From positions 1-46,052 of IMG/VR virus record IMGVR_UViG_3300032250_000128: a stretch of 46,052 nt of DNA. One strand, written 5' to 3'. Both the position numbers and the translations under genes were made by a program. The notes below the pieces were generated by a model. That model worked only from the letters and a program-made list of their open reading frames with translations, was not told where the DNA came from and did not search any database. This DNA comes from a virus. Lineage: Duplodnaviria > Caudoviricetes. This document shows, piece by piece, positions 3,298 to 41,000 of this stretch; positions within the stretch are counted from its first letter, which is position 1; each line of letters starts with the position of its first letter.

Positions 3298-3374
3298 AAA
3301 CTAAGACAAATTGTCTGTGTGGTCAATTGCGAGACAATTTGTCCTTGACGCCCTCGCCGACCTGCGAGTATGTT
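3298..3374. promoter_or_regulatory. Divergent sigma70-like promoters with two palindromic operators
   Basis: Leftward: TTGACC (3326-3321)-17 bp-TAGTTT (3303-3298). Rightward: TTGACG (3345-3350)-18 bp-TATGTT (3369-3374). GACAAwTTGTC palindromes at 3305-3315 and 3333-3343. Confidence 0.7.
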
Positions 3375-14898: not shown

Positions 14899-17400
14899 TC
14901 AATAGCGGCCATCCTCTTGGTATCGATACCTGATGTTCCCAAGTCGCCAGAACGACCCGATATCGTTGCTTTCGACCTTAATCGAAACGAGGCGACCACG
15001 GAAACGGGGCGTTATGAACGTGGTCGCCTGCGTCATGAGGAACGGCCCATATTGGAGGGGCGTCTGGCCGGCGTAGTCGGCCACGAAGAACGTCAGTTGG
15101 ATCTGCGCGTTCTGTGTTCCATCGTAGTATCCCCACTTCATGTCCGGCCAGATCTGGTCAATGAACATCTTCACGTTTGCTTCCGTCAGGACAAAGTAGC
15201 CCGTCTGGAAGCTTGCATTGATGGCCTGACCGTCTGCGTCCGTCGATGTCTCGTGCTGGTAGATGAACTGGTCTGGAGCGGCACCAATCGGAGGACCAAG
15301 AACGCTCTCATTGATCCAAGCCGTCCGGGCCAGCGTTCCGAAGTCCCACTGGTCAAGGATGAAGTTGTACTTGACGTAGTGGCTCACCTCGCCACCGTTT
15401 GATTTGGTCGGATAGAACCACGAGATCTCACCAAAGCGGGAATTTGGCGCAACGCGGATCTTATCGAGATTGTTCGTGTCCAAATCTTGGAAAATAACGT
15501 CCCAAACTGGACAGCGGATGGGCTCAACGCCACCGCCGGCAAGCCGGAAAAACTGGCTCTGGCCCATCCAATAGACCACGCCGTTGATCGACGCAGCCGC
15601 CTTGCGACCAATCAGGCCGCAGCCAGTGCCGAGTTCGTTGAACTGATAGACGTAGGGCGGCCCGACGTACTGCATCGCCCAGATGGCGAGATCCGTCCAG
15701 ATAAGACCTTGCTGCGGCCCCTGAATACCCTGAACAATGCGAGAGCCCTTCGGTATCCGATAGCTGCCGGCCTGATTGGTGACGAGGCCAACCCACGAGT
15801 TGTAGTTGGCGACATCGCACCAGCGAATAAGCAGCGCGTCTTTCACGCCGTTGAACGTGCTGCCGTAGGCGATGATTTGCTGCTGCGGCATCGCCACAAA
15901 GAAGCCCTCGTTGACCTGAGGGGCCTCTGGAATGACGGTCGCAATAGGATTGTTGGCGGACGGAGACCACTCGTAAATAGGACCATCCAGAGGAGACGCA
16001 ATCAACGTCTCTCCCCAGTTATCGAGAGACCAGTCGACTACATTGGTGATCGGCGTGCCAGTTCCGGCGGCAGGGGGAATGCCGGAGCCGTAGCCACCAG
16101 TCCCATAGCCGCCGACGCCGTAACCGGAATTGATTGCAAGCGGCCCAACACCGTTGAAATAAACCAGTCCAGCAAGATTGTTGTTCTCCCGCACAACGCT
16201 GACAAAAATTGTTCCGGCAACAGTCTGAGCGCCTGTCGTTGCGTTGGCGTAAGAGACGCTGCCCGCCGAGGATCGAGTGACCGTGTAGGTGCCGTTGTAG
16301 CCGCCCGGTGTCACGCCCGCCACGACAATCGTGCTTCCCACAGGCACAGTGTAGGTTGAAGCAAAGGTCAGAGTTGCGACAGACCCCGTGCCAGACGTCG
16401 TAAGTGTCGGCGTTGTAGTTGCAGCGTTTGCGGCTTGAATGGTGAAGATATTGGTTGGAGAGCCACTATCCAGAGACTGAACCAGATAGTTTCCGCTAAC
16501 GGTGACGCCGCCCGCCACAACAGGGACAAGGACGGGGAAGGTATCACCAACCTGAAGACCATGGTTGGCAAGCGTGACAGTGACGGTAGAGGGGTTGGTT
16601 GTACTGAAAGCAAAGGATGGTACGGCCCCGCCACCAGACACGGTCGATGTTGCGTATGCTGGATTGCCCAGAACATCGCGCGCCTGAATGGAATACTGGT
16701 TCGCCGAAATCGGAGTGACGCGGTACAGACCAAAAAGGATCAGGCCGCCAACGCTCACCTGTGTCTTGATGTCAACGACATCGAAGGCGTCAAGAGTGCT
16801 TCCCGTGTCGTCAATGGTAACAGTAGAGCTACCCGCTATCGTGCTGAACGACACGGGAACGCCCTGCGCACTGACAATTGTGCCGCCGCTCACATACGCG
16901 CCGGGGTTAGGCGTTTTCGCGTACGAGATGCTGCCCGAACCACCGACAGTCAGAACATACGTTCCGTTATACCCGGATGGGTTTATACCGCTCACGACGA
17001 CGGTCGTTCCCAGCTGAAACGGAAACGAAGTCGAGAATGTCAGTGTCGCGACGCCACCAGACCAAGACGCGCCCGTCACGCCGATGGATGTTGATGCCGT
17101 TGTCGTTTGGGGCGTGATTGTCTTAGCGCCGCCGTCCACGATTGCCGACAGGGACTGATCTGCGCCCACGCCGAGCCATGAGTTGGAGTTGATGTCCTGC
17201 CACGCCCACAGGGCTCGAATGGTCGAGCCGATCTGGTTCGGAAAGAATTTCGTCCAGCCGCCGAGCTTTTGAACAAGGCCACCGAGCGTGCGGTCGGGGA
17301 TGAACCGCACAAAGCTGGTTGTCGAGATTGCGGCCTCGTTGAGGGCCGGGGTCTTGTTTTGATCAACGCCGGGGATGAGACGCAAGGAATTATGGGGCAT
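14899..17400 (-). CDS. Podovirus tail hub / DNA stabilisation (tail tubular B, P22 gp10-like) protein with inserted beta-sandwich repeats
   Basis: 833 aa. Beta-propeller-like C-terminal half (WSLDNWGE, IRWCD, IWTD.AIW.MQY, WRLG..R). Internal GxTVVVxGxxPxGYNGTY repeats. Confidence 0.75.
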   Translation of the reverse strand: MPHNSLRLIPGVDQNKTPALNEAAISTTSFVRFIPDRTLGGLVQKLGGWTKFFPNQIGSTIRALWAWQDINSNSWLGVGADQSLSAIVDGGAKTITPQTTTASTSIGVTGASWSGGVATLTFSTSFPFQLGTTVVVSGINPSGYNGTYVLTVGGSGSISYAKTPNPGAYVSGGTIVSAQGVPVSFSTIAGSSTVTIDDTGSTLDAFDVVDIKTQVSVGGLILFGLYRVTPISANQYSIQARDVLGNPAYATSTVSGGGAVPSFAFSTTNPSTVTVTLANHGLQVGDTFPVLVPVVAGGVTVSGNYLVQSLDSGSPTNIFTIQAANAATTTPTLTTSGTGSVATLTFASTYTVPVGSTIVVAGVTPGGYNGTYTVTRSSAGSVSYANATTGAQTVAGTIFVSVVRENNNLAGLVYFNGVGPLAINSGYGVGGYGTGGYGSGIPPAAGTGTPITNVVDWSLDNWGETLIASPLDGPIYEWSPSANNPIATVIPEAPQVNEGFFVAMPQQQIIAYGSTFNGVKDALLIRWCDVANYNSWVGLVTNQAGSYRIPKGSRIVQGIQGPQQGLIWTDLAIWAMQYVGPPYVYQFNELGTGCGLIGRKAAASINGVVYWMGQSQFFRLAGGGVEPIRCPVWDVIFQDLDTNNLDKIRVAPNSRFGEISWFYPTKSNGGEVSHYVKYNFILDQWDFGTLARTAWINESVLGPPIGAAPDQFIYQHETSTDADGQAINASFQTGYFVLTEANVKMFIDQIWPDMKWGYYDGTQNAQIQLTFFVADYAGQTPLQYGPFLMTQATTFITPRFRGRLVSIKVESNDIGSFWRLGNIRYRYQEDGRY

Positions 17401-19419: not shown

Positions 19420-20493
19420 TCACGTCTCGCCCCCATCGCTACGCATGAGGTTCAGATTGTTGAGCAGCCGGGCGTCGTCCGGTGCAAACGAAACAGCGTT
19501 AGTGGCATGATACACTGCGAGGTTTTTCAGGCCAAGATTCCAAGACGAAATGGCCGCCAGATCATGCGGCCAGTAACCCCAAACCGCCGGATCGCAGGTG
19601 TACACAAAGTCCTTGTCCACGACCTTAAGAGCCCGCGTGGATGCCGCAAAGCACTCTTCCCAACGGCTCTGGCGATACATCAGCATGGCGAGATCGCACC
19701 ACGGCTCGCGCGTGTTGGGGGTCTCGCCGCAGGCCATGTGGAGCCACTTCTCGGCCTCGTACGCGTTGCCCAGTTCTTGGTAGGACTTCCCGAGCAAACG
19801 CATCGCGTAGCACCGCTCGTTCTGCCATGTCGCCGCCGGCAGATCCAAGTATCGCTTCAGCGCCGCGATGGCCTCCTCCCATCGATTGTGGAAGGTCAGC
19901 TCTCGGGCATAGTAGAAGGCGTTGCGCGGGCAATGCGGGTCTTCCTGAACCGAAATGGTCAGAAGGTCGATGTACTGGCCACGGCTCTTGGTCGGGTCCG
20001 GGTGGTGCGACACCAGCAGCGCGTCAGTGTCGACCCAGACCTCAGTGATGCGACCATCGGGGACTGGGTACTCGTGGCAGGGATGGTGCCACCGATACCC
20101 GTGCCGGGCGTGGATCTTCTCGTATCGAAACTTGATCCCGCAGCCCCAGTCGAACATGTACCGAAGCCGGGTCGTCTCGCCCAGCTTCCACACGCGCTCA
20201 ATCTCTTCGCGCCATCCGGGTTCCAGAACCTCGTCGATGTCTAGGGAAATACAGACATCGACATCAGCCGGGACAAGAGCAAGAGCAGCATTCCGGGCAG
20301 TATCAAAACGCCAAGGAGAAATGTGGATGCTGTAAACACGAGCCCCACACTCAGCAGCTTTTTCCACCGTGCCATCGGTTGACCCCGTATCTGCGATGAG
20401 GATCAGATCGGCATCTTTGGCGCTTTCACAGAAACGCTCTACGAAGTGCTCTTCGTTCTTGGATATGGCGTAAACGCAAATCTTCAGCGGCAT
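19420..20493 (-). CDS. GT2 glycosyltransferase with C-terminal TPR repeats
   Basis: ISKNEE, DTGSTDGT, FDTARNAAL, DxD motif (LDIDE), HE, helical TPR-like C-terminus. Confidence 0.92.
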   Translation of the reverse strand: MPLKICVYAISKNEEHFVERFCESAKDADLILIADTGSTDGTVEKAAECGARVYSIHISPWRFDTARNAALALVPADVDVCISLDIDEVLEPGWREEIERVWKLGETTRLRYMFDWGCGIKFRYEKIHARHGYRWHHPCHEYPVPDGRITEVWVDTDALLVSHHPDPTKSRGQYIDLLTISVQEDPHCPRNAFYYARELTFHNRWEEAIAALKRYLDLPAATWQNERCYAMRLLGKSYQELGNAYEAEKWLHMACGETPNTREPWCDLAMLMYRQSRWEECFAASTRALKVVDKDFVYTCDPAVWGYWPHDLAAISSWNLGLKNLAVYHATNAVSFAPDDARLLNNLNLMRSDGGET

Positions 20494-25731: not shown

Positions 25732-26225
25732 CAGAGCGGCCCTGTCTCTGGAATGGAAGTGTTGTTTGGAGGCAGATTGACAGGGCCGGGAACATTTGGA
25801 TCCGTACCGGGCTGCTCGTTGAGGCCACCCGGCGGCTCGCCAGTCTGCTGCGTGACACGAGTGTCGTCGTTCTGCGTGATGCGCGTATTGCCACCGGGGA
25901 CAGGGATGCCCGTCTCTTGATTGACGGTATCCAGCCCGGAAGTGACGCGCGTATTGCTCGCCGCCTGCGCGTAGTTCGGCACGCGTGGGTTCTGGATCGG
26001 CATCGGATCAGCCGGCACGACAATGGCGCGAAGCTGGTTCTGGGGCGTGTCTTCGCACGACCTGCACACAAGCAGGCGGGTGTTCTGAAGCGACGCGCCG
26101 CGCCAATCAAATTGGAACCGCAAGTCTGAGTGTGTGTACAAAAAGCCACAGCGATCACATTGACCGGCTGCCCTCGGGCTCTTGGCACTGACTTTCGCGC
26201 GACCCTGCTGGCTGGCGTAACCCAT
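25731..26225 (-). CDS. Conserved phage protein with Cys4 motif
   Basis: CDRCGF.Y...L...W.G.....LLVC..C.D.PQ.QL...DP.PI.NPR. Confidence 0.8.
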
Positions 26226-28665: not shown

Positions 28666-29130
28666 TTAGACGATGTTACGAGCCTGAACGTACTCGACCT
28701 CGATGAATCCCGTTCCAGCGCCCGTGTTGGCCGAAAGAACGAAAATGCGCACGTCGCTGGCGCCAACATCGGCCCAAGCATTTACGCGCGTAGCACTAGC
28801 GCCCGGGGCAACATTGACGATTGCGAGCGTGCCGCCGGCCTGCGTGATCGCAAGCTCTGTCGCCGTAGCTGACGTGCCGACAGAAAACGTCGTAGCGGCC
28901 CCATCCCACACGACATTCACGTAAACGCGAATAGCGGTGACCATAGATCCAGCCGGAACGACGATGTCAGTCGTATAAAGGCCAGCCGTCGAGCCGTTCG
29001 TCGCCTGAGTAAGCGCCGAGGACTGAGACATCTTTACGAAGCCGACGTTTTTAATCGATCCGACCGTCGTTCCAGTCGTGTCGAGAACGTCACCGGCCTT
29101 GATCGGCCCGGTGAAAGTAGTAGTTCCCAT
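28666..29130 (-). CDS. Putative capsid decoration / minor head protein
   Basis: MGTTTFTGPIKAG, beta-rich, directly after the major capsid gene. GGAGGT RBS. Confidence 0.75.
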   Translation of the reverse strand: MGTTTFTGPIKAGDVLDTTGTTVGSIKNVGFVKMSQSSALTQATNGSTAGLYTTDIVVPAGSMVTAIRVYVNVVWDGAATTFSVGTSATATELAITQAGGTLAIVNVAPGASATRVNAWADVGASDVRIFVLSANTGAGTGFIEVEYVQARNIV

Positions 29131-29139
29131 CTTTACCTC

Positions 29140-29206
29140 CTGCACGAGATAAATCGCGTTGTCTGTGCAGCGCCCGCTAGGCCGGTCAACGCGATTAAAC
29201 GCCTAG
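29140..29206 (-). ncRNA. Candidate structured cis-regulatory RNA (interlocked double pseudoknot)
   Basis: Three perfect complementary pairs of 6, 10 and 6 bp in the order A-B-A'-C-B'-C', ending at the RBS. Confidence 0.6.
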
Positions 29207-29233
29207 AAAAAGGCGGGGCCGAAGCCCCGCCTT
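29207..29233 (-). terminator. Rho-independent terminator after the major capsid gene
   Basis: AAGGCGGGGC-TTCG-GCCCCGCCTT-TTT on the - strand. Confidence 0.9.
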
Positions 29234-29239
29234 GTAGCA

Positions 29240-30145
29240 TCAGGTCGGGAGCGATCCGAAGATCGAACGCCAGTTGTAGTAACCGAAGCTGTAACGTTCG
29301 TAACCCTTCACGAGAAGGTTATCAGTTACGAAGTCCACTTGCATGTCGGTTTCAAAGCCGACGCGCTCCATGTAGGAGAGGCCGTCGATGTTCGTGAGCA
29401 GGAACCAAGCACGAGCCGATGTGAGGTAATCGTTGACCATGTAGCCCTCGGGCAGGCCGCCCGAAGTCATCATGATCGCATTAACATCGTTGTCGGCAGT
29501 GCCGGGACGCAGTTCCGTCTTCGTCAGACGGATCGCAACCGGCTCAAGCTGCGGCGGGACGATCAGGCGACGACCGCGCGCGAAGACCTTCAGGCCAGCC
29601 TGATCCTTGAAGTTCGTGCGGATGGCGATCATGCCATTCAGCAGCGTGGCTTCGTTAAGATCGTTGGTGACGTAGTTGGAAATCGTGCCGCCATCAATCG
29701 GATGCGACGCCGACACAAGAGCGACGCCGTCACCGCCGACCGACGCATTGTAGGTCGTGGCAGTGTTCAGCACGTTCGCGCCGTAGATTTCCTTGGTCTG
29801 AGCGAAAGACTCGATCAGGCCGAGGTTCGACGGGGCGAACTGGCTCTTGTAGAGGTTGTCGTCGATGGCCTTGCGGGTGATCGCGTAACCCAACCCGATT
29901 TCGACGTGCTCCTGATTGTAGACGTAACGTTCGCCGGCGCTGTTATCGAACGCCGTCTGACCGCCTTCCGTCTTCAACTGAGCATAGCCGAGGAAGCGCA
30001 TCTCAGCGGTGCGCTCCAGAGCCATCTTCGAGTTGTGCTTCGTGAAGATCTTGTCGTACTGGCTGGGAATCATTTCGTACTTGCCTTCGATCCCCCGCAG
30101 CCCGGGAAGGAGCAAGTCTCTGATTGCACTAAGATTTACGGCCAT
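29240..30145 (-). CDS. Major capsid protein
   Basis: 301 aa. LLLPGL, K.EG....FD, LGYAITR.AIDDNLY, GGDGVAL.S.SHP, LIVPPQL, AWFL.T, ERYSFG..NWR. Followed by a strong terminator. Confidence 0.88.
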   Translation of the reverse strand: MAVNLSAIRDLLLPGLRGIEGKYEMIPSQYDKIFTKHNSKMALERTAEMRFLGYAQLKTEGGQTAFDNSAGERYVYNQEHVEIGLGYAITRKAIDDNLYKSQFAPSNLGLIESFAQTKEIYGANVLNTATTYNASVGGDGVALVSASHPIDGGTISNYVTNDLNEATLLNGMIAIRTNFKDQAGLKVFARGRRLIVPPQLEPVAIRLTKTELRPGTADNDVNAIMMTSGGLPEGYMVNDYLTSARAWFLLTNIDGLSYMERVGFETDMQVDFVTDNLLVKGYERYSFGYYNWRSIFGSLPT

Positions 30146-30156
30146 AGGTTCTCTCC

Positions 30157-30645
30157 CTAATGGCTAGGGTTAGAAGGAATGTGTCGCCACGACCTGCCTG
30201 TGCGGACTAGCCACACATTTGAAGGATCTATGCCGTAACGCTTAGCCAGAACGTCATTGCTCTCAGTTGAAGCCCTGATTTCGAGGACATCTTTTTCAGA
30301 AAGCTTTGATGTTCCAATTGCCTCGCCATTAACAACACGCCGCCCTCTGGCCTCGCGGTCAGACACGTTATCTTTTTGCGTTCCGAGGGTGAGATGATCC
30401 GGGTTTATGCAAGCAGGGTTATCACACGAGTGACGAACAACCATTCCTTTAGGAATAGGCCCTTTGTACACTTCATATGAAATACGATGAGCCCGCTGAT
30501 TTTTGCCAGCGCGGCTCATCATCCCATAGCCGCCAGAACCATAATAGCCGACCCACTCCCAACAACCATTCTCAGCAAGGCGAGAGCGATTGAAGAGCGT
30601 GTACTTCAGCAAATCAGAGTTCGTGACAACTTTAAACTCAGTCAT
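30157..30645 (-). CDS. HNH homing endonuclease
   Basis: CWEW.G....GYG, AHRISY, VRHSCDNPACINPDHL.LGT..DN. Visibly AT-richer than its flanks. Confidence 0.92.
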   Translation of the reverse strand: MTEFKVVTNSDLLKYTLFNRSRLAENGCWEWVGYYGSGGYGMMSRAGKNQRAHRISYEVYKGPIPKGMVVRHSCDNPACINPDHLTLGTQKDNVSDREARGRRVVNGEAIGTSKLSEKDVLEIRASTESNDVLAKRYGIDPSNVWLVRTGRSWRHIPSNPSH

Positions 30646-30654
30646 CTCAATCTC

Positions 30655-31287
30655 TTACGCGAGGCCAGTCGGGCCGGCACCGTTGGTGCGGCTGGACGCG
30701 TTGTTGAAGGCAACGATCACGCGGTTGAACTCGGACGCCGCGTCAGTACCCTCCGCGCCCGGAGGCGAATCGATGAGACCAACAACAATGAACGGGTGCG
30801 TGACCGTGGTGGCGAGCGTGTTGACGTTCACGGAAGCCGTGGACAGGCCGTTCGCGGTGTTGCCATTCGGCGTACCCGAGAGGCCAATGCCGTACCCGAT
30901 GTTGACGTACTCGCCAATGTTGGCGAACGCCACGGCAGCAGTGCCAGCGCTATCAGAGGACTGAACCTCAAACTGCATCTGGGGGTTGCTGTACAGGTAC
31001 GCCTCAACGTCCGAAGAGGCGTCCGCGCCGGGCCAATAGTTTGACCAGACAACGCGCTTCTGAGAGGTCGAGAGATACTTGCAGCCCGAGAAAATGCCTT
31101 CGCAGCGGACAGTGCCGCCGGCAGACATCTGGGTGATGTACCCAGTCGTCAGGGGGATTACAGGATCGCCCTGAAAGATCTTCGTCGTGTTGTCGGACTT
31201 GATGTAGCGGGTCGCAAGCTCGTAGGTCGGCGCAGCGCCATTACCACGGTACGGAATGAAACCGAAGGGTGCGTTTGTATTCGGCAC
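30655..31287 (-). CDS. Capsid stabilisation/cement-like protein
   Basis: N.NAPFGF.P, IFQGDPV, GIFSGC.Y, FEVQ. Upstream of the capsid gene. GTG start with AGGAGG. Confidence 0.75.
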   Translation of the reverse strand: MPNTNAPFGFIPYRGNGAAPTYELATRYIKSDNTTKIFQGDPVIPLTTGYITQMSAGGTVRCEGIFSGCKYLSTSQKRVVWSNYWPGADASSDVEAYLYSNPQMQFEVQSSDSAGTAAVAFANIGEYVNIGYGIGLSGTPNGNTANGLSTASVNVNTLATTVTHPFIVVGLIDSPPGAEGTDAASEFNRVIVAFNNASSRTNGAGPTGLA

Positions 31288-33605: not shown

Positions 33606-33635
33606 GGGGCGGCTGAGTACCGAACCAGCCGCCCC
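33606..33635 (-). terminator. GC-rich hairpin, possible terminator or processing site
   Basis: 10-bp perfect stem GGGGCGGCTG/CAGCCGCCCC with only a weak U-tract. Confidence 0.5.
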
Positions 33636-35053: not shown

Positions 35054-38000
35054 TTAAGGGACAGTTTCCTCGCGCGGCGACGAGTTAATCTCACGAGCAA
35101 GCATCATAGCACGATCTGCAACAGATCCGCCGTCGGCGTATCGGTTCAAAATCTCGACATCGCGCGCTGGATCAAAAACAACATAGTTGTGTGAGGGGCG
35201 CGAAAGTCCAAAGCTCTTGGGATCTTGGTACAAATTCCCTGAAAGACCCAAATCGCGCAAAACTGAAGTTGAGCGATCTGGATCGTTGCGGCCAATCATG
35301 TTGTAGATTCGATTTCCACTAAACTCAGAGAGAAATGGCTTCTTTGGCATTTTATTGGAAATGACACCAACAGGCATCCCAGTCTCATCTACCCACGCAT
35401 AATTACCGCCCGGCAGCAGGGCCTCGCGAAGACCCATTCTCTCAGGAGTAAGCACACTCTGGACATCTAGTGATTGCTCGGAAAGGGGTCTGTTCCAATT
35501 CAAAAATTTTTTACGCGGCGCATTAATGTCAACTTCGTATAAACTACCACGACGCTTCATAGCATCTAGAGCAATGGATTGAGCTTCGTCAAAAGAGATG
35601 TTTTCGCCATACTTCCTAGCAAGCGCCGAGATGATGTCCATGTCCCTCGCATCCGGGCGATTTGCAAGATCAAATGCAATCTCTTCTTTAGGTGTCATTT
35701 GGCCAGAAAAGCGACGATAGCGATCTTCCGGGTCACCAACGAACTCTAAAGCGCGATTTTTATCATCCGCGAAGTACATGCCCTTGCCATAAAGCTGCTG
35801 GCCCTCCCCAGATCCGGCACGCGATATATCAAAGCGCTCAAATTTACGAGGAGATCCGTGCCATGCACGAATAGGATTTATCGCCTCAAGCCCACGGCGA
35901 ACCAAACCCGAACCGCCCGCCTCCGCCTCTTCCGGTGTCATGACGGCAGCACCAGCGCCAACCGCAGTCGCCGTGCCGGGGTTGCCAGCGACGAAGCGGC
36001 GAGCGGCCTCAAGACCGCTGCGCACGGCGTCTGCCGCCTGCTTGCGATAGGCAAGCGCAGGTGCCACAACGCCAAGAGCGCCGGTCACTCCTGCGCCGAG
36101 GTAGTCGCCCTTGTCGAGGGCGCTCTTGGTGTCGATTGCCGCCTCGCCAAGATCTGCCGCAGCAGCAAACGGCGCAGCCGGCGTGAAATAGAAGGGCACG
36201 GTCTTGAGCGAGTACGCGGTCTGTGCCATGCCCGACAGGGGGCCTGCCACGTCGTAAGGGGCCTCACCAAGCTGACGTTTGCCGATGAAGCCGCCCTCAA
36301 TCTCGATGGGGCGCATCGGCTTACTGGGCGCGTGCGTCATGCTTTGGATGTCTGCGGGCTGCTGCGCAATAGCGCGCATGCGGTTCTCGTATTGCTGGAT
36401 GTCAGCTTCTGGCTGGGAGCCGCCACTCAGCCCCAGCATACGAGAGAAAAATCCGGGCATCGCCTCGTACTTTTCTGCCGCAGGCGATCCACCGTCCGCA
36501 TACATGCCCCGCACGACATTCATGGCGCTCTCGACTTCGCCACCATCTGCACGCTCGCCGCGCATTCGGATGTACTGCTCCTCGTTGGGGTACTCTTGCG
36601 TCGTTCCGGGGAACGAGGCCCGGCGCTCATCCAGATCCATCTGCATGCGGTTCTGGACGTTGCGGGCTTCAGTTTCGCCCGCAAGACGCCGGTAAAGCTC
36701 GTAGTTCTTCAGGGAACCCCAGCGCCCTGTCGGATTAAGCTCTTCAAATCGCTGTTTTAGAGCCGGAATGCGTTCCTGCTCGGAAGCGATTTGGCGCTCG
36801 TTTTCTGCTTGAAACTCGCGAAACTTGGAAAGCTGCTCAGGATCCGCATAATCGGTATCAAACATGCGGTCCATTATTTGCTTCCGCATTTCCGTGGCCC
36901 TGCGGCTGGCGCGCATCTGCTCCAGAAGAACCTCGGACTTCAGAGCCTCCTTGATCGCAGTGCTGCCGCCGCCAGTGCCAAAATTTTCGCTATTCTGAAT
37001 GCCGTGTTGCAATTCGTGCAGCATGGTTGACTGAGCCTGCTTCGGATCCGGAGGCAGCGACAGGGTGTTTGTCCTGTTGTTGAAGCTACCCATCAGGCCC
37101 TGATCGTACTCACTCTGCGGCACCATCCCGAGATTAATCTTGTTGAGGTTGGGATACATTTCAAACAGGCGAGGATGGCTAAGAAGCTCGCTCGGGCGAA
37201 CAGGGTTTCCCGCGCGCAGGCGCTCAAAGTTCTCCGGATTAATGGTGGCGTCCTTGTCGCTGACCTCAAACCGCCAGCGCCCATCGGCACCTTGGAACCA
37301 GCCGGTCGAACCGTCGCTGGCAGAGCCGCGATAAGCCTCCTCGGGGCTCGCGCCCTCGGCAATGAGCCGCTTGGCAAGCTCCAAAGACTGCAAGGGTGCC
37401 CCAACAGCGCCCTCGCCGGCAAACATGGCAACGCGAACGGGCTCCTGCTGCGGAAGCTCACGCACCACACCGAGCGCGTCGTCTACGATGCCGCCCGTCG
37501 CGCGCCCCTGACGCTCGCGCTTAGCGCGCTCCAGCCGCTTGGCGTAGGCCGGCGACGCATTGAAGAACGTGTGCGAGCCGAGACGAGCAGCATTCGCCGC
37601 CCCGCGCTTGGCGTTGAACGACGTGCTGCCCCGATTGAAGTCGGTCGCGTTGGCAAACTTGGGCTGGATCGTTCCCTCGATGAGGCCGCGCGCGATCTCG
37701 CGGGCCTGCTGCGCAATGGCCTGCTGCTGAGGCGTCTCGCCCGCCATGATGGCCTTGGCGTTCGGAGAGTTGTAGCCCAGAAACTGGCGCGGGCGCGAAA
37801 GCTGCGCCTGAAGCGTGTTGCCGTAGTCGTTGTAGTTCATCAGGACGCGATTGAGCGCGACCTGACCGACCTGCGCCATGCCCTCACGGCCCTGCGTCGA
37901 GGCTTCGCCAGCGATCATGTTCGCCAACGCCTCAACGTCGGCGTCACTGAACTGACCATACGGGCCGCGAACTTCCGCCGTCTTCGCAACCGGCGTCTGC

Positions 38001-41000
38001 GCCGGGGGAGCCACTGTGCTCTGAAAGGACTGGCTGGAGGGCAGCGTTCCGTAGTCTCTGGGGGCTGGAGGCACGCCAGCACGGTCAGGCAGAACCGCGC
38101 CGCTACGAATGTCCTCGACGCCCAGCGTCGCCTTGCTGCCGAGCAGCGCAGGGTCCACCAGATTGTTGATTAGGGTGTCAAGGCGACGCCGCCCGTACTC
38201 ACCCGGAGGCAAGCTAGGGTCTGGCGGAGCGAAGAGGTTCTGCGCAGCAGAAACTGCCCGCTCGCGCGCATTAGGGCCAAAGATCCCGGTCATGATCCGG
38301 TCGAGCTTCTGGCGACCGTACTCGCCGGGGGGAAGTTCAGCCGGAGCGTTGGGCGTCAAGCCAGCGCCCGTCTGGGGCGGCCCAAATGCTTCCAGATAAG
38401 ACTGGCGGTTCGGGTCCACGGCGGGCTGCTGCGCCGAAACAGCGTCGCGATAGCGCCTCTGATCAGCAACGTCTCCACCGTAAGTCGTAAGGACGCCAAT
38501 TCGCTCATTTGGCGTCGTGTGCGGCTCGCTCGGCACGGGCAACCGATTGAACTGCATGGCCGGGCCGCGATTGAGGCTCTGGTCAACAGCGTCTTCGAGG
38601 TAGTTGTCAATCACGTCGAGGCGCTGATCCGGCGTCGTAAGCGGAGGGTCCATGGTCTCTCCTCCGTCAGCATACATGCCGCGAGCAATGTGCAAGGCAC
38701 CCTCCACTGCACCACCGTCTCGCTCTTTGGAACGCTCGCGGACGATTTGCATCTCATCCGGGAACTGTTGCGTCTCCCATGGCCGCTTGTCGTATCCCTC
38801 TTGTGCGCGCGTCTGGACGTTGCGGGCTTCAACTTCTCCGGCAGATCGAAGATATGCGGTTTTAACCGCATACTTTTGAGCTTCAGTTTTTACAAGCTGA
38901 GAAGGATTTTTGACGGCCTTCAGATATGAAGGGTAAGACTTTCTAGCGGCTTCAATGTCGTTTCCAAAACCAGCGACAGCAGCATAGGTTTCAAGCGGTA
39001 AAGGTTTTTTGATCGCAGCAAGGCGCTCTTGGTAAATAGCCCACGCCGGCGTTCCCTTCTTGAGAGCAAGAGTATTTCCTCCCGGAGCAAAGTTTTCCAT
39101 GGCCTGAACCCCATGCTGCAATTCATGCAGCGCGCTTGAAAGCGGATTCTTCGCATACTTGCCAATTTGGAGCGTGGGGAACGTCTCTTTTACGTTTGGA
39201 TTGCCACTCCACATCCCCTGAATGCCGCCCTTCTTAATCGGGTTCGCGTAAAAATCCACATCCGCAAGCTGCGGATATGCCCTGAACAATTCAGGATGAT
39301 CGATTGCTTCGCCAACAGTATACTTTTCTATGTATCCCGGACGCATAGACGCTGCCGTGTCAGGGATCTCAAACCTCCACTGTTTGTCTGCGCCTTGAAG
39401 CCACTTGGTCGCGTCATAGATCTCGTCTCGGGTTGCGCCTTTCTTTACCATATCGCGGGCAACTTCGAGCGCCTGAAGGTCTGCCGTCTTAGCGGACGGG
39501 CCAAGAAACATGCCGATAGATCCGCGCGGCGCTGACCCTACAGTCATGCCGCCACCCATCACCGCGCTAGATAAATCCATCGCCCGCTGAATGCCTATCT
39601 CGCTCGTAGGATCTACGCGCCCTTCGTACACGTCACGCGGAAGAGCCGCTCCGCCAACGATAGAGCGAGCAAGCTGCGCGGGCCATGTCTCAGACAGAGC
39701 CTGACCAACATCGCGCATGCGGGCCGCCCGGTCGAGCCTGTCCGCATATGCAACCATGTCGTTCAATTGGGCGTTTTTCTCACCTTCAGAAACAGGTACG
39801 CCACCATCCGCCATCACCTGACGCCCGACGTTCGGCAGGTAGTGCGTAAGGTACTGGTCTTCGAGGAGGCGGCCGCCTTCCGCACGCCCCGCACGCATGG
39901 CGTTGCTGGCGCGAACGAAGTCTGCCGGGTTGCCAGTCTCGTTGTAGATCTCCCAGAGACGCCGGGACTCGGACCTGTCGGGTGCAGCCGGAGCACGAGC
40001 CGGGGCACGCACAGGCGCAGGACGCGGGGGCGGAGGAGATTGGCGCGACACCCGGATGTCCATCGGGCGAGGCTCGGAGCGCACCACTTCAAGCGCCCGG
40101 TCAACCACTTCGGGCTGCGCTGGCCTGAACGACCTGTTGAGCGGAATGTCCTCCGCGCGATTGGGGATCTTGCCCGCCGGTGCTGGCGGAAACACGCGGC
40201 TCATGTCGAAGAAGGCAGCATCGCTGTCGAGCGTGTAGTTGGGCGCGTCGTTGAAATCGACTGCGCCACCATCCTCGCGATTACGCCGGAACATGATCGA
40301 CGCCGCGCCTACATCGGAGGGCTCGACATCGAAGCGGGGGCCGAGTGTGTCGCCCACGTATTCGCGCAGCTCACGCGGCGTGAAGCCCTTCTGGTAGCGG
40401 GCGCTGTCGCCCTCGCCGATGATGAGCGACATGGGCTCCGGTCCCGGCTCGCCCCTCGCAGCCATCACGTCGCGACCGCGCGTCGAGATCACGCCACCTC
40501 CGCCCGGCTCCACGACGCGGCCCATGTTGAGCACCGCCGACTGGCGCGCCTCCGGGTCCAGCACGTTGAGCACGTTCAGGTTCACGAGGCGACGATACAC
40601 GTCGTCCGGGATGTCTTCGGGCTTGGTGAACGTCGGCGTCCAGCCCTGCGGGTAGGGCTCGAACGTGTCGGCCCCGATGCTGCGCAGGCCGTGGCCTCGC
40701 CCCGCGCCGTAGTCGATGGCCCGGCCCTCAATGCCGGCACGCTCCAGATGGCGGAGCGCTTTGTCGTAGGACGGCCCGGTCGTCGCGATCTGGGTCAGCC
40801 GGGAGTTCTCGGCGGGCGGCAGACCGCGCACGGCCCGCAGCGCCTTCAGGATGACGCCACCGTCTGCGAAACCGTCGCGAGGCTCTTCCTGCCCCGGCTG
40901 CGCCATGCCGAGGCCGACAGCACCCGGAACCATCGTAAAAAGCGGCAGGCCCTCTTTGATCTTCTCGCGCATAGCGGGGGTGATGTTGAGGGAGGGGAGG

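Follow-up and report, generated by a model that had tools for sequence, protein, structure and literature searches.

Mu-gpT-DE is the closest described relative of the RNA element presented here. The motif is held in Rfam as RF03012, a family of 53 nucleotides (nt) with the type 'Gene; sRNA' (small RNA), with no function assigned in Rfam and with a structure line that carries no pseudoknot. Its name does not occur in the main text of PMC5737381, and in the passage found elsewhere in the literature it stands only as a name. The present study deals with an element on the minus strand of a viral DNA stretch of 46,052 nt (IMG/VR record IMGVR_UViG_3300032250_000128; Duplodnaviria, Caudoviricetes), which is called the window here at its full length. 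The element lies between the gene of the major capsid protein and the ribosome-binding site (RBS) of the next gene. Our data show that it is a real fold of four helices, kept by compensating changes in its homologues. We give an even chance to the reading that it is a doubly pseudoknotted mRNA leader, an enlarged relative of Mu-gpT-DE, which ends at the RBS of a predicted cement gene and likely gates the initiation of translation. What is known is the motif family, as an orphan in Rfam; what is new is the expanded, doubly pseudoknotted form, which the RF03012 model misses.

A four-helix fold kept by compensating changes

Inspection of the sequence gives three perfect Watson-Crick helices on the minus strand, on which all positions of the element are given here in the 5' to 3' direction. 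H1 pairs CUAGGC (29206-29201) with GCCUAG (29182-29177), H2 pairs AAUCGCGUUG (29196-29187) with CAACGCGAUU (29161-29152) and H3 pairs CUGCAC (29170-29165) with GUGCAG (29145-29140). H1 crosses H2, H2 crosses H3, and together they use 44 of 67 nt. A sequence-only reading of the window had described these three helices and their crossing, and its coordinates were exact to the base. New with respect to that description is a fourth helix, H4, in which CCG (29185-29183) pairs with CGG (29176-29174), so that the 3' arm of H1 forms the entire 6-nt loop of a hairpin. The strand order is H1a-H2a-H4a-H1b-H4b-H3a-H2b-H3b. In this architecture the H2 helix of 10 base pairs (bp) closes a junction and the 3-bp hairpin H4 lies inside it. 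The loop of H4 pairs with the 5' tail to give H1, and the 6-nt junction strand pairs with the 3' tail to give H3.

The junction is framed by three nearly invariant G-A-C triplets. The final G of the H2 5' arm is invariant and is followed by the junction base A29186 and the 5' strand of H4 (29183-29186 together). The 3' strand of H4 is followed by the junction bases GCG (29171-29176 together), in which the window has G at 29173 where most of the aligned relatives have A, as part of an A-C-N junction. The junction bases AGA (29162-29164) make up the third triplet with C29161, and these columns are invariant or nearly so in the two alignments called A1 and A3. The 5' arms of H1 and H2 are separated by a GUUU spacer, and the 3' arms of H2 and H3 by UAUCUC (29151-29146). 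The H2 3' arm ends at 29152, 11 nt before AGGAGG, with the H3 3' arm in between. The Shine-Dalgarno (SD) sequence AGGAGGU (29141-29135) has as its first two bases the last two of H3, and the final G of H3 is the initial G of GGAGG (29140-29136). The last strand thus does run into the RBS, as the sequence-only reading had it. It was observed that a -10-like hexamer, TTTAAT (29199-29194), overlaps the H1-H2 spacer and the start of H2. At the same place TATAGA, CATAGA or TATAGT is present in the related loci L015, L020, L040, L076, L119, L125, L136, L144, L147, L158, L186 and L194, and other relatives have no such hexamer in this spacer. If active, it would yield transcripts without H1 and most of H2.

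The proof of the fold comes from relatives. A query with the capsid protein found 599 related IMG/VR stretches (about 1800 by estimate), of which the best 80 were used, and a scan of IMG/VR with a pattern of the conserved core added at least 120 more (about 560 by estimate). The initial regular expression was too strict (it found 9 of 82) and was replaced by a looser pattern, with which 183 element matches in 202 sources were reduced to 122 distinct sequences. In the 170 nt after the capsid stop codons of relatives the same element is found with different helix sequences. Alignments A1 (the 122 distinct sequences) and A3 were made with MAFFT and made no use of structure. In A1, 90.4% of 3026 cells are standard pairs as compared to 78.0 +/- 0.4% after shuffling, a value that none of 500 shuffles reached, and to 25.7-38.1% with the partners displaced by 1-3 columns. 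Covariation scored 0.404, and shuffled alignments gave 0.175 (again 0 of 500). Pairs changed on both sides were found in every helix: 5 of 6 in H1, 9 of 10 in H2, 1 of 3 in H4 and 3 of 6 in H3. The covariation in homologous post-capsid regions that the sequence-only reading had named as a check on its structured RNA is therefore present.

Each helix was also supported on its own. H1 was tested separately since MAFFT sets its 5' arm in two registers: a hairpin loop pairs over at least 5 bp with the upstream tail of its own sequence in 119 of 122 cases, against 224 of 1220 for foreign loops, with 27 distinct loops in the set. H2 has 77 distinct arm pairs, and among its non-Watson-Crick cells G.U outnumbers A.C by 62 to 15, which argues for a structured RNA on the sense strand. 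H3 is CUGCAC/GUGCAG in 77 of the 122 sequences, UUGCAC/GUGCAA in 29 and CUGUGC/GCACAG in 7, and CUGCGC/GCGCAG was seen too. A covariance model, R1, was built on H2 and H4 only and was used to realign 100 distinct sequences (alignment A4). Here the two helices absent from the model are again recovered, with H1 paired in 83.4% and changed on both sides at 4 of 5 pairs, and H3 paired in 99.2% with double changes at 3 of 6. For H4, IMG/VR was scanned for cores in which the middle base of the 5' strand is not C and its partner is left free. The 53 matches comprised 47 with A opposite U, 3 with U opposite A and 3 other combinations. These last 3 and one of the A/U matches (L255) are without the rest of the element and were judged by eye to be chance matches. 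The middle pair of H4 in A4 is C-G in 80 sequences, A-U in 18 and U-A in 2.

The sequence-only reading had called the three crossing helices unlikely by chance. In 200,000 mononucleotide shuffles of the 76 nt a 10-bp helix came up 265 times and a crossing triple once, so the judgement stands for the triple. However, a single 10-bp inverted repeat is not rare across the window: perfect inverted repeats of 10 bp or more number 10 there and 3.55 +/- 1.9 in 100 simulated windows. The window sequence alone is therefore only suggestive, and it is the homologues that decide. ViennaRNA, which draws no pseudoknots, found H2, and the stretch folds better than 200 of 200 shuffles (z = -2.79). Another eight perfect inverted repeats (10 bp or more, loops of 3-60 nt) lie at 3307-3341, 14991-15028, 16802-16857, 20233-20262, 25737-25788, 33606-33635, 36073-36128 and 38126-38188, and are probably terminators or other structured RNAs.

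Probable relation to the Mu-gpT-DE family

The RF03012 consensus reads CCCUG-A-CAGcc[loop]ggCUG-AC-A-cUAGCC-A-cGAC-AGG-AGAU..AUG and the corresponding part of the window reads G-A-CCG[GCCUAG]CGG-GC-G-CUGCAC-A-GAC. Compared by eye, the RF03012 and R1 consensus sequences share a core of G-A-C, a hairpin and then G-A-C-N-(6 nt)-A-GAC, and the window has it as well. In both the window element and Mu-gpT-DE an outer helix closes this junction signature, and the junction strand of 6 nt has as its partner a segment on the 3' side, at the RBS. The H4 variants CAG/CUG in the window's family are the same as the base of the RF03012 hairpin. Both elements follow a Mu-gpT-like head gene and precede a homologous gene whose product starts M..TTF.GP. 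For the window the identity of the head gene comes through Roseobacter phage CRP-901: the window's capsid protein shares 40% identity (E 2e-55) with the head protein encoded before the RF03012 match in this phage, and the 154-amino-acid (aa) product of the window's downstream gene is 37% identical (E 2e-14) to CRP-901 gp56. The capsid protein matches PHROG 371 'major head protein' (E 1.2e-11), and its match to Pfam Mu-like_gpT is weak (E 0.01) and below the cut-off.

In other respects the two differ. The outer helix of the window has 10 bp and not 4, and it lies upstream of the SD rather than containing it. The window hairpin has 3 bp, and its 6-nt loop forms with the 5' tail the extra pseudoknot H1, which the classical motif is without. 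The junction strand of the window finds its partner just upstream of the SD rather than at the start codon. That of the classical motif, UAGCCA, has its complement in AUGGCUA at the start codon, with the variants UACCC/AUGGGUA and UUGCCA/AUGGCAA; the outer helix of this motif is CCUG/CAGG, and its 3' strand continues into the SD, CAGGAG. The classical motif ends at the AUG; the window element does not, nor does the 3' strand of its outer helix lie in the SD.

A pattern scan of IMG/VR for the classical form gave 114 distinct loci (about 2400 stretches by estimate), and 113 of them are followed by a protein start M..TF.G[PAV]. GCC junctions go with AUGGC and the nine CCC junctions with AUGGG. 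The comparison of own with foreign start codons did not discriminate, because most classical sequences share GCCA/UGGC; only the switch from GCC/GGC to CCC/GGG is informative. Most of the classical loci (L332-L451), when read by eye, have a terminator and then a TGTATAnn box (extended -10-like) about 17 nt before the motif, of which a regular expression caught only 19 of 114. With such a box the classical motif would be the 5' end of an mRNA, and not a 'downstream element' or the sRNA of its Rfam type.

No Rfam model matches the window element. The whole window has no family at gathering score. Within 551 nt around the element, at E <= 10, there are only sub-threshold sRNA look-alikes, all on the terminator, and no RF03012; nothing relevant was found in 17 homologous loci (E <= 1) or in 16 capsid loci lacking the element. 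The RF03012 model also found nothing in 33 further loci. Its gathering threshold is 49 bits, and as a positive control the post-capsid gap of CRP-901 scored 72.3 bits. Among cultured relatives and other named phages, located by tblastn of the capsid protein, R1 gave 31.3 bits (E 9.3e-7) in Pelagibacter phage HTVC023P, 26.4 bits (E 1.8e-5) in phage DSL-LC04 and a doubtful 9.8 bits in HTVC027P. The matches in HTVC023P and DSL-LC04 are complete forms with four helices, which differ greatly from the window's in sequence; those of HTVC023P include, by eye, CCUAG/CUAGG for H1, CUG/CAG for H4 and GUAUAG/CUAUAC for H3. On five related records RF03012 had no match at the leader and one at E 1.69 elsewhere. 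A weak RF03012 match of 16.2 bits (E 0.012) lies on the minus strand of DSL-LC04 (OR003939.1, 34582-34634, locus L330), far from the leader of the cement gene, and is either noise or a second related leader. Forms without H1 and with a short H2 exist in L042, L070, L080 and HTVC027P, and these look like intermediates between the classical and the expanded motif.

The window element would then be an enlarged, doubly pseudoknotted branch of the Mu-gpT-DE family, in which the RBS has shifted from inside the fold to its 3' edge. This kinship is drawn from the shared signature and the homologous flanking genes and not from a model score. It should be noted here what speaks against it: signature and neighbours were read by eye, the RF03012 model has no match in the window genome at E <= 10, and R1 has none in CRP-901 at E <= 1. 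No description of the expanded, doubly pseudoknotted form was found in the literature, and the Minerva preprint has no mention of it in the passages found. A survey of IMG/VR has predicted 10,006 candidate structured RNAs (PMC10690425). In its tables neither the core sequence of the element nor the contig identifiers of six relatives were found, the alignments being outside this comparison, and the element may be among its unnamed candidates.

Genes around the leader and its proposed role

In the window the element stands between a terminator and an RBS, as the sequence-only reading had placed it. The capsid gene (301 aa, 29240-30145, minus strand, stop TGA at 29242-29240) ends 33 nt upstream of H1. 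It is followed by an intrinsic-terminator-like hairpin (29207-29233) with a GC-rich 10-bp stem (29233-29224 with 29219-29210), a UUCG loop and a run of five U (29211-29207); the hairpin is present in the ViennaRNA minimum free energy (MFE) structure and is also listed among the window's inverted repeats. H1 begins at the base right after the U run, and the SD follows the fold directly. The terminator, however, turned out to be replaceable. Most relatives have H1 within a few bases of an upstream hairpin (read by eye, as the terminator detector under-counted U tails). In L003, L004, L008, L014, L027, L046, L049, L071 and L201 an extra open reading frame (ORF) lies between the capsid gene and the element. 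In these loci the hairpin is absent, the stop codon of the ORF is 1-6 nt before H1 and the element stays directly before the second gene. In other lineages 20-35 nt separate a terminator from H1 and contain a -10-like box, which lies 7-13 nt before H1, with a full TTGACA-17-TATAAC in L209. Because the position before the gene is kept when an ORF replaces the terminator or a promoter-like box intervenes, the element belongs to the downstream gene and not to the terminator. One such extra ORF (L004:3912-4664) carries a C-terminal CxxC...DHCH...CNxCN pattern, which we take to resemble an endonuclease VII/HNH-type nuclease. In the window itself an HNH endonuclease ORF (30157-30645, minus strand, 162 aa; PHROG 1872, 59 and 6254, E down to 2.2e-33) sits between a 210-aa ORF (30655-31287) and the capsid gene, and looks like a homing-endonuclease insertion in the head module.

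Over the full 46 kb of the record R1 finds a single copy of the element (77.4 bits, E 2e-18; the runner-up has 10.2 bits), and it finds one in each of 3 complete IMG/VR relatives out of 3. The element is present in 63 of 81 capsid-anchored loci. Among the 18 without it, L039, L043 and L053 end soon after the capsid gene, and in many others, such as L030, L055, L075 and L079, the next gene starts a few bases past the capsid stop with no hairpin. In species genomes of GTDB there were 70 pattern matches, and R1 gave E <= 0.01 to 13 of them. Only 4 have the full length, at about 80 bits or more, and the rest are the pattern core alone. The full-length ones are L291, L297 and L306, on contigs of three Opitutae metagenome-assembled genomes (MAGs), two of them of 58-61 kb, and L268 in an Aestuariivirga MAG. 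Contigs of phage-genome size binned with Opitutae may be a hint to the host or a binning artefact.

The downstream gene (28666-29130, minus strand, ATG at 29130) encodes a protein of 154 aa that begins MGTTTFTGPIKAG. Among 145 readable downstream ORFs 131 are homologous to it (33-95% identity), and 11 of the remaining 14 start with the same M-x-(S/T)TTF(S/N)GP motif. Neither Pfam nor PHROG has a family for it, sequence comparison gives no relative in the PDB, and its homologues, at least 1297, are all unnamed. An AlphaFold2 model from 40 sequences (pLDDT, the predicted local confidence, 74.6) is a beta-sandwich with 28 disordered N-terminal residues. Its best Foldseek matches are capsid structure entries of phages KHP30, Pam1 and GP4, with E 2.9e-3 to 5.4e-3 (none below 0.001) and template-modelling (TM) scores of 0.45-0.63. 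The protein is 35% identical to a gene product of phage DSL-LC04 annotated 'cement protein' by its depositors, in a genome that is metagenome-assembled (PMC10611076). It is predicted from the model, the structural matches and this homologue to be a capsid cement or decoration protein with a jellyroll fold, which agrees with the decoration protein that the sequence-only reading expected. A 7-bp hairpin, TCACCGG (29114-29108) with CCGGTGA (29096-29090), was observed 16 nt after the ATG in the codons of the FTGP...AGD N-terminus, and may be a mere consequence of those codons.

Among the functions that the sequence-only reading had offered (translational switch, nuclease-blocking element, small ribozyme-like RNA), control of translation has the most support. 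It is favoured because the position of the SD is fixed, because the classical relative pairs both SD and AUG and because there is one copy per genome before one gene. Relative to the end of H3, an SD-like tetramer starts 2 nt before it in 92 of 122 sequences, 1 nt before it in 15, at it in 13 and 1 nt after it in 2, so that 120 of 122 conform; the start codon is 9-12 nt after H3 in 108 of 122. That the junction is near-invariant while every helix changes suggests that it is a specific binding or folding unit. The folded junction could be such a unit, whose state would set the access of the 30S subunit to the adjoining SD. As for an effector, we would first guess at a protein, perhaps the one that the gene itself encodes, before a metabolite. 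Where the leader comes directly after the terminator, as in the window and most relatives, it would be read only on read-through transcripts, and in lineages with a promoter-like box a few bases upstream it would be the very 5' end of the mRNA. It is plausible that the leader sets the stoichiometry of decoration to capsid protein. The leader might also act in mRNA stability, cleave itself or sense a ligand.

Several points weigh against such gating in the window. Only 1-2 bases of the SD are within H3 in the window type, and pairing of the SD is certain for those bases only. A candidate helix H5, in which UAUCUC (29151-29146) pairs with GAGGUA (29139-29134) around the H3 3' arm as loop, is part of the MFE structures of the window (-6.0 kcal/mol locally) and would take in the SD. 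Across the family, however, H5 is paired in 89.8% against 85.7% when shuffled, slid registers are equally good, and on A4 it is paired in 71.4%. The local pairing probability of the SD is 0.444 as compared to 0.395 with shuffled spacers. H5 is a candidate only and is not claimed here; as it is without family-wide support, the RBS of the window variant may be largely free. If H5 does form, the fold would be pseudo-two-fold: the series of a strand, an H2 arm and a hairpin with its loop paired back to that strand would occur twice. In other phages cement proteins are supplied in about the same numbers as the capsid protein. For a cement protein needed in such numbers, a leader that reduces translation and stands behind a terminator is an odd arrangement.

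The same terminator junction suits a second explanation, in which the element marks an mRNA processing boundary and protects a 5' end. The U-rich linker between terminator hairpin and H1 would be cut, or, in relatives of the promoter type, transcription would start just upstream. The knot, with its base-paired 5' end, would shield the downstream message from 5'-end-dependent decay, and the hairpin would shield the capsid message. We hold this unlikely, though it survives best among the alternatives. In the window nothing separates H1 from the U run, most relatives have only a few bases between H1 and a hairpin, and the boxes upstream of H1 (L209) and before the classical motif (TGTATAnn) would put a base-paired fold at the extreme 5' end of the mRNA. 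The layout of two pseudoknots, one for each tail, is loosely like that of exonuclease-resistant RNAs. But a plain hairpin would suffice for 5' protection, and neither invariant junction bases nor a fixed SD position relative to H3 would be needed. A contig from an RNA library (Logan contig X15, from a relative) covers the equivalent of 29153-29995, which takes in the terminator and most of the element. It has adapter at both ends and may be DNA, so it is uninformative on transcript ends and levels. Of the other Logan contigs, X18 and X20 are confined to parts of the capsid gene, and X16 is probably DNA.

A riboswitch that senses a metabolite or ion is improbable, with the GAC junction as aptamer and H3 with the SD as expression platform. 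Known translational riboswitches do use a pseudoknot strand at the SD, and here the 3' strand of a pseudoknot abuts or contains it beside invariant unpaired junction bases. However, the sole gene under control is a virion structural gene, with no metabolic logic for a ligand, no riboswitch class known to Rfam matches, and few bases are both invariant and unpaired. Slightly less probable again is a small self-cleaving ribozyme of an undescribed class that separates the capsid message from the downstream one. Small ribozymes are common in phage genomes; about 75 nt with four helices, two pseudoknots and a near-invariant junction have the complexity of one, and the lack of a conserved 5' flank is as expected for cleavage at the 5' edge. 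On the other hand, no Rfam ribozyme matches the window region at E <= 10 or 17 homologues at E <= 1, the strand order is not that of HDV-like (hepatitis delta virus) ribozymes, and tight coupling to the SD, and to the AUG in the classical motif, is not required for cleavage. X15 is uncut across the 5' edge of H1, which is weak evidence as this contig may be DNA. A trans-acting sRNA, as the Rfam label 'Gene; sRNA' of RF03012 has it, is very unlikely, for the element has no terminator of its own, the only one nearby is upstream, and it runs straight into SD and ATG in 122 of 122 sequences and in the classical motif. Chance inverted repeats or a site at the DNA level such as a protein-binding palindrome can be set aside with near certainty: although a stretch of 46 kb readily holds one 10-bp inverted repeat (10 against 3.55), this explanation is refuted by the compensating changes in four helices over more than 100 sequences, the G.U bias of 62 to 15 on the sense strand and the partner-free scan of H4, and the crossing triple came up in 1 of 200,000 shuffles.

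The leader, taken as a device of translational control, has consequences beyond the window. Mu-gpT-DE, an orphan motif typed as sRNA, would belong to a much larger family of mRNA leaders, estimated at about 560 expanded and about 2400 classical IMG/VR stretches, and the Rfam model misses the expanded branch. As the fold carries pseudoknots that reach the RBS, the family is directly testable as translational control of a virion structural gene, and versions exist in cultured phages (Pelagibacter phage HTVC023P and Roseobacter phage CRP-901). In a bolder form, which we hold unlikely, the GAC-junction knot would be the core of a functional RNA class that is new, and would either cleave itself as a ribozyme or sense a factor of phage or host, in thousands of aquatic phages including those of SAR11 and Roseobacter; the window would hold its most elaborate, pseudo-two-fold form, switching the synthesis of the cement protein on or off during assembly. 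Should the junction prove to bind a factor or to be catalytic, viruses that are among the most abundant in lakes and oceans would have a new RNA mechanism. A purely constitutive fold would still be useful for structure work, as a compact, natural double pseudoknot of about 75 nt in which covariation is dense.

Comparison with other structured RNAs

In size, in having two crossing helices and in being frequent in viral genomes the element is like HDV-like and twister ribozymes and the flaviviral exonuclease-resistant RNAs. HDV-like ribozymes have the order P1-P2-P3-P3'-P1'-P4-P4'-P2', a nested double pseudoknot. In the window the hairpin H4 encloses the 3' arm of H1 and H3 crosses H2, and the sequence-only reading was right that this topology is not that of HDV. 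In the Rfam searches of the window, the 551-nt region and the 17 homologues there was no match to HDV-like ribozymes or to known riboswitch aptamers, and none to twister, pistol, hatchet or hammerhead (window region at E <= 10, homologues at E <= 1). Unlike twister, the element has no stem that encloses all the rest. With respect to the flaviviral exonuclease-resistant RNAs the arrangement is reversed: here the 5' tail is the partner of the hairpin loop and the 3' tail that of the junction.

The preQ1-II, SAM-II and NAD+-II riboswitches are, like the element, compact, have conserved junction bases and have the 3' strand of a pseudoknot overlapping the SD. They differ from it in their genes, as here a virion protein and not a metabolic or transport function is encoded, and no Rfam riboswitch matches. 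The leaders of rpsO (S15) and of the alpha operon (S4) in E. coli are pseudoknotted operators that are stabilised by their own gene product. Similarly, the leader of T4 gene 32 is a pseudoknotted translational operator which is bound by its own product (PMC10690425). The window element is without sequence or model similarity to these three leaders, and unlike them it is built on a three-way-like junction with two loop/strand knots. Like them, it could be holding back initiation by a pseudoknotted fold at the SD or AUG.

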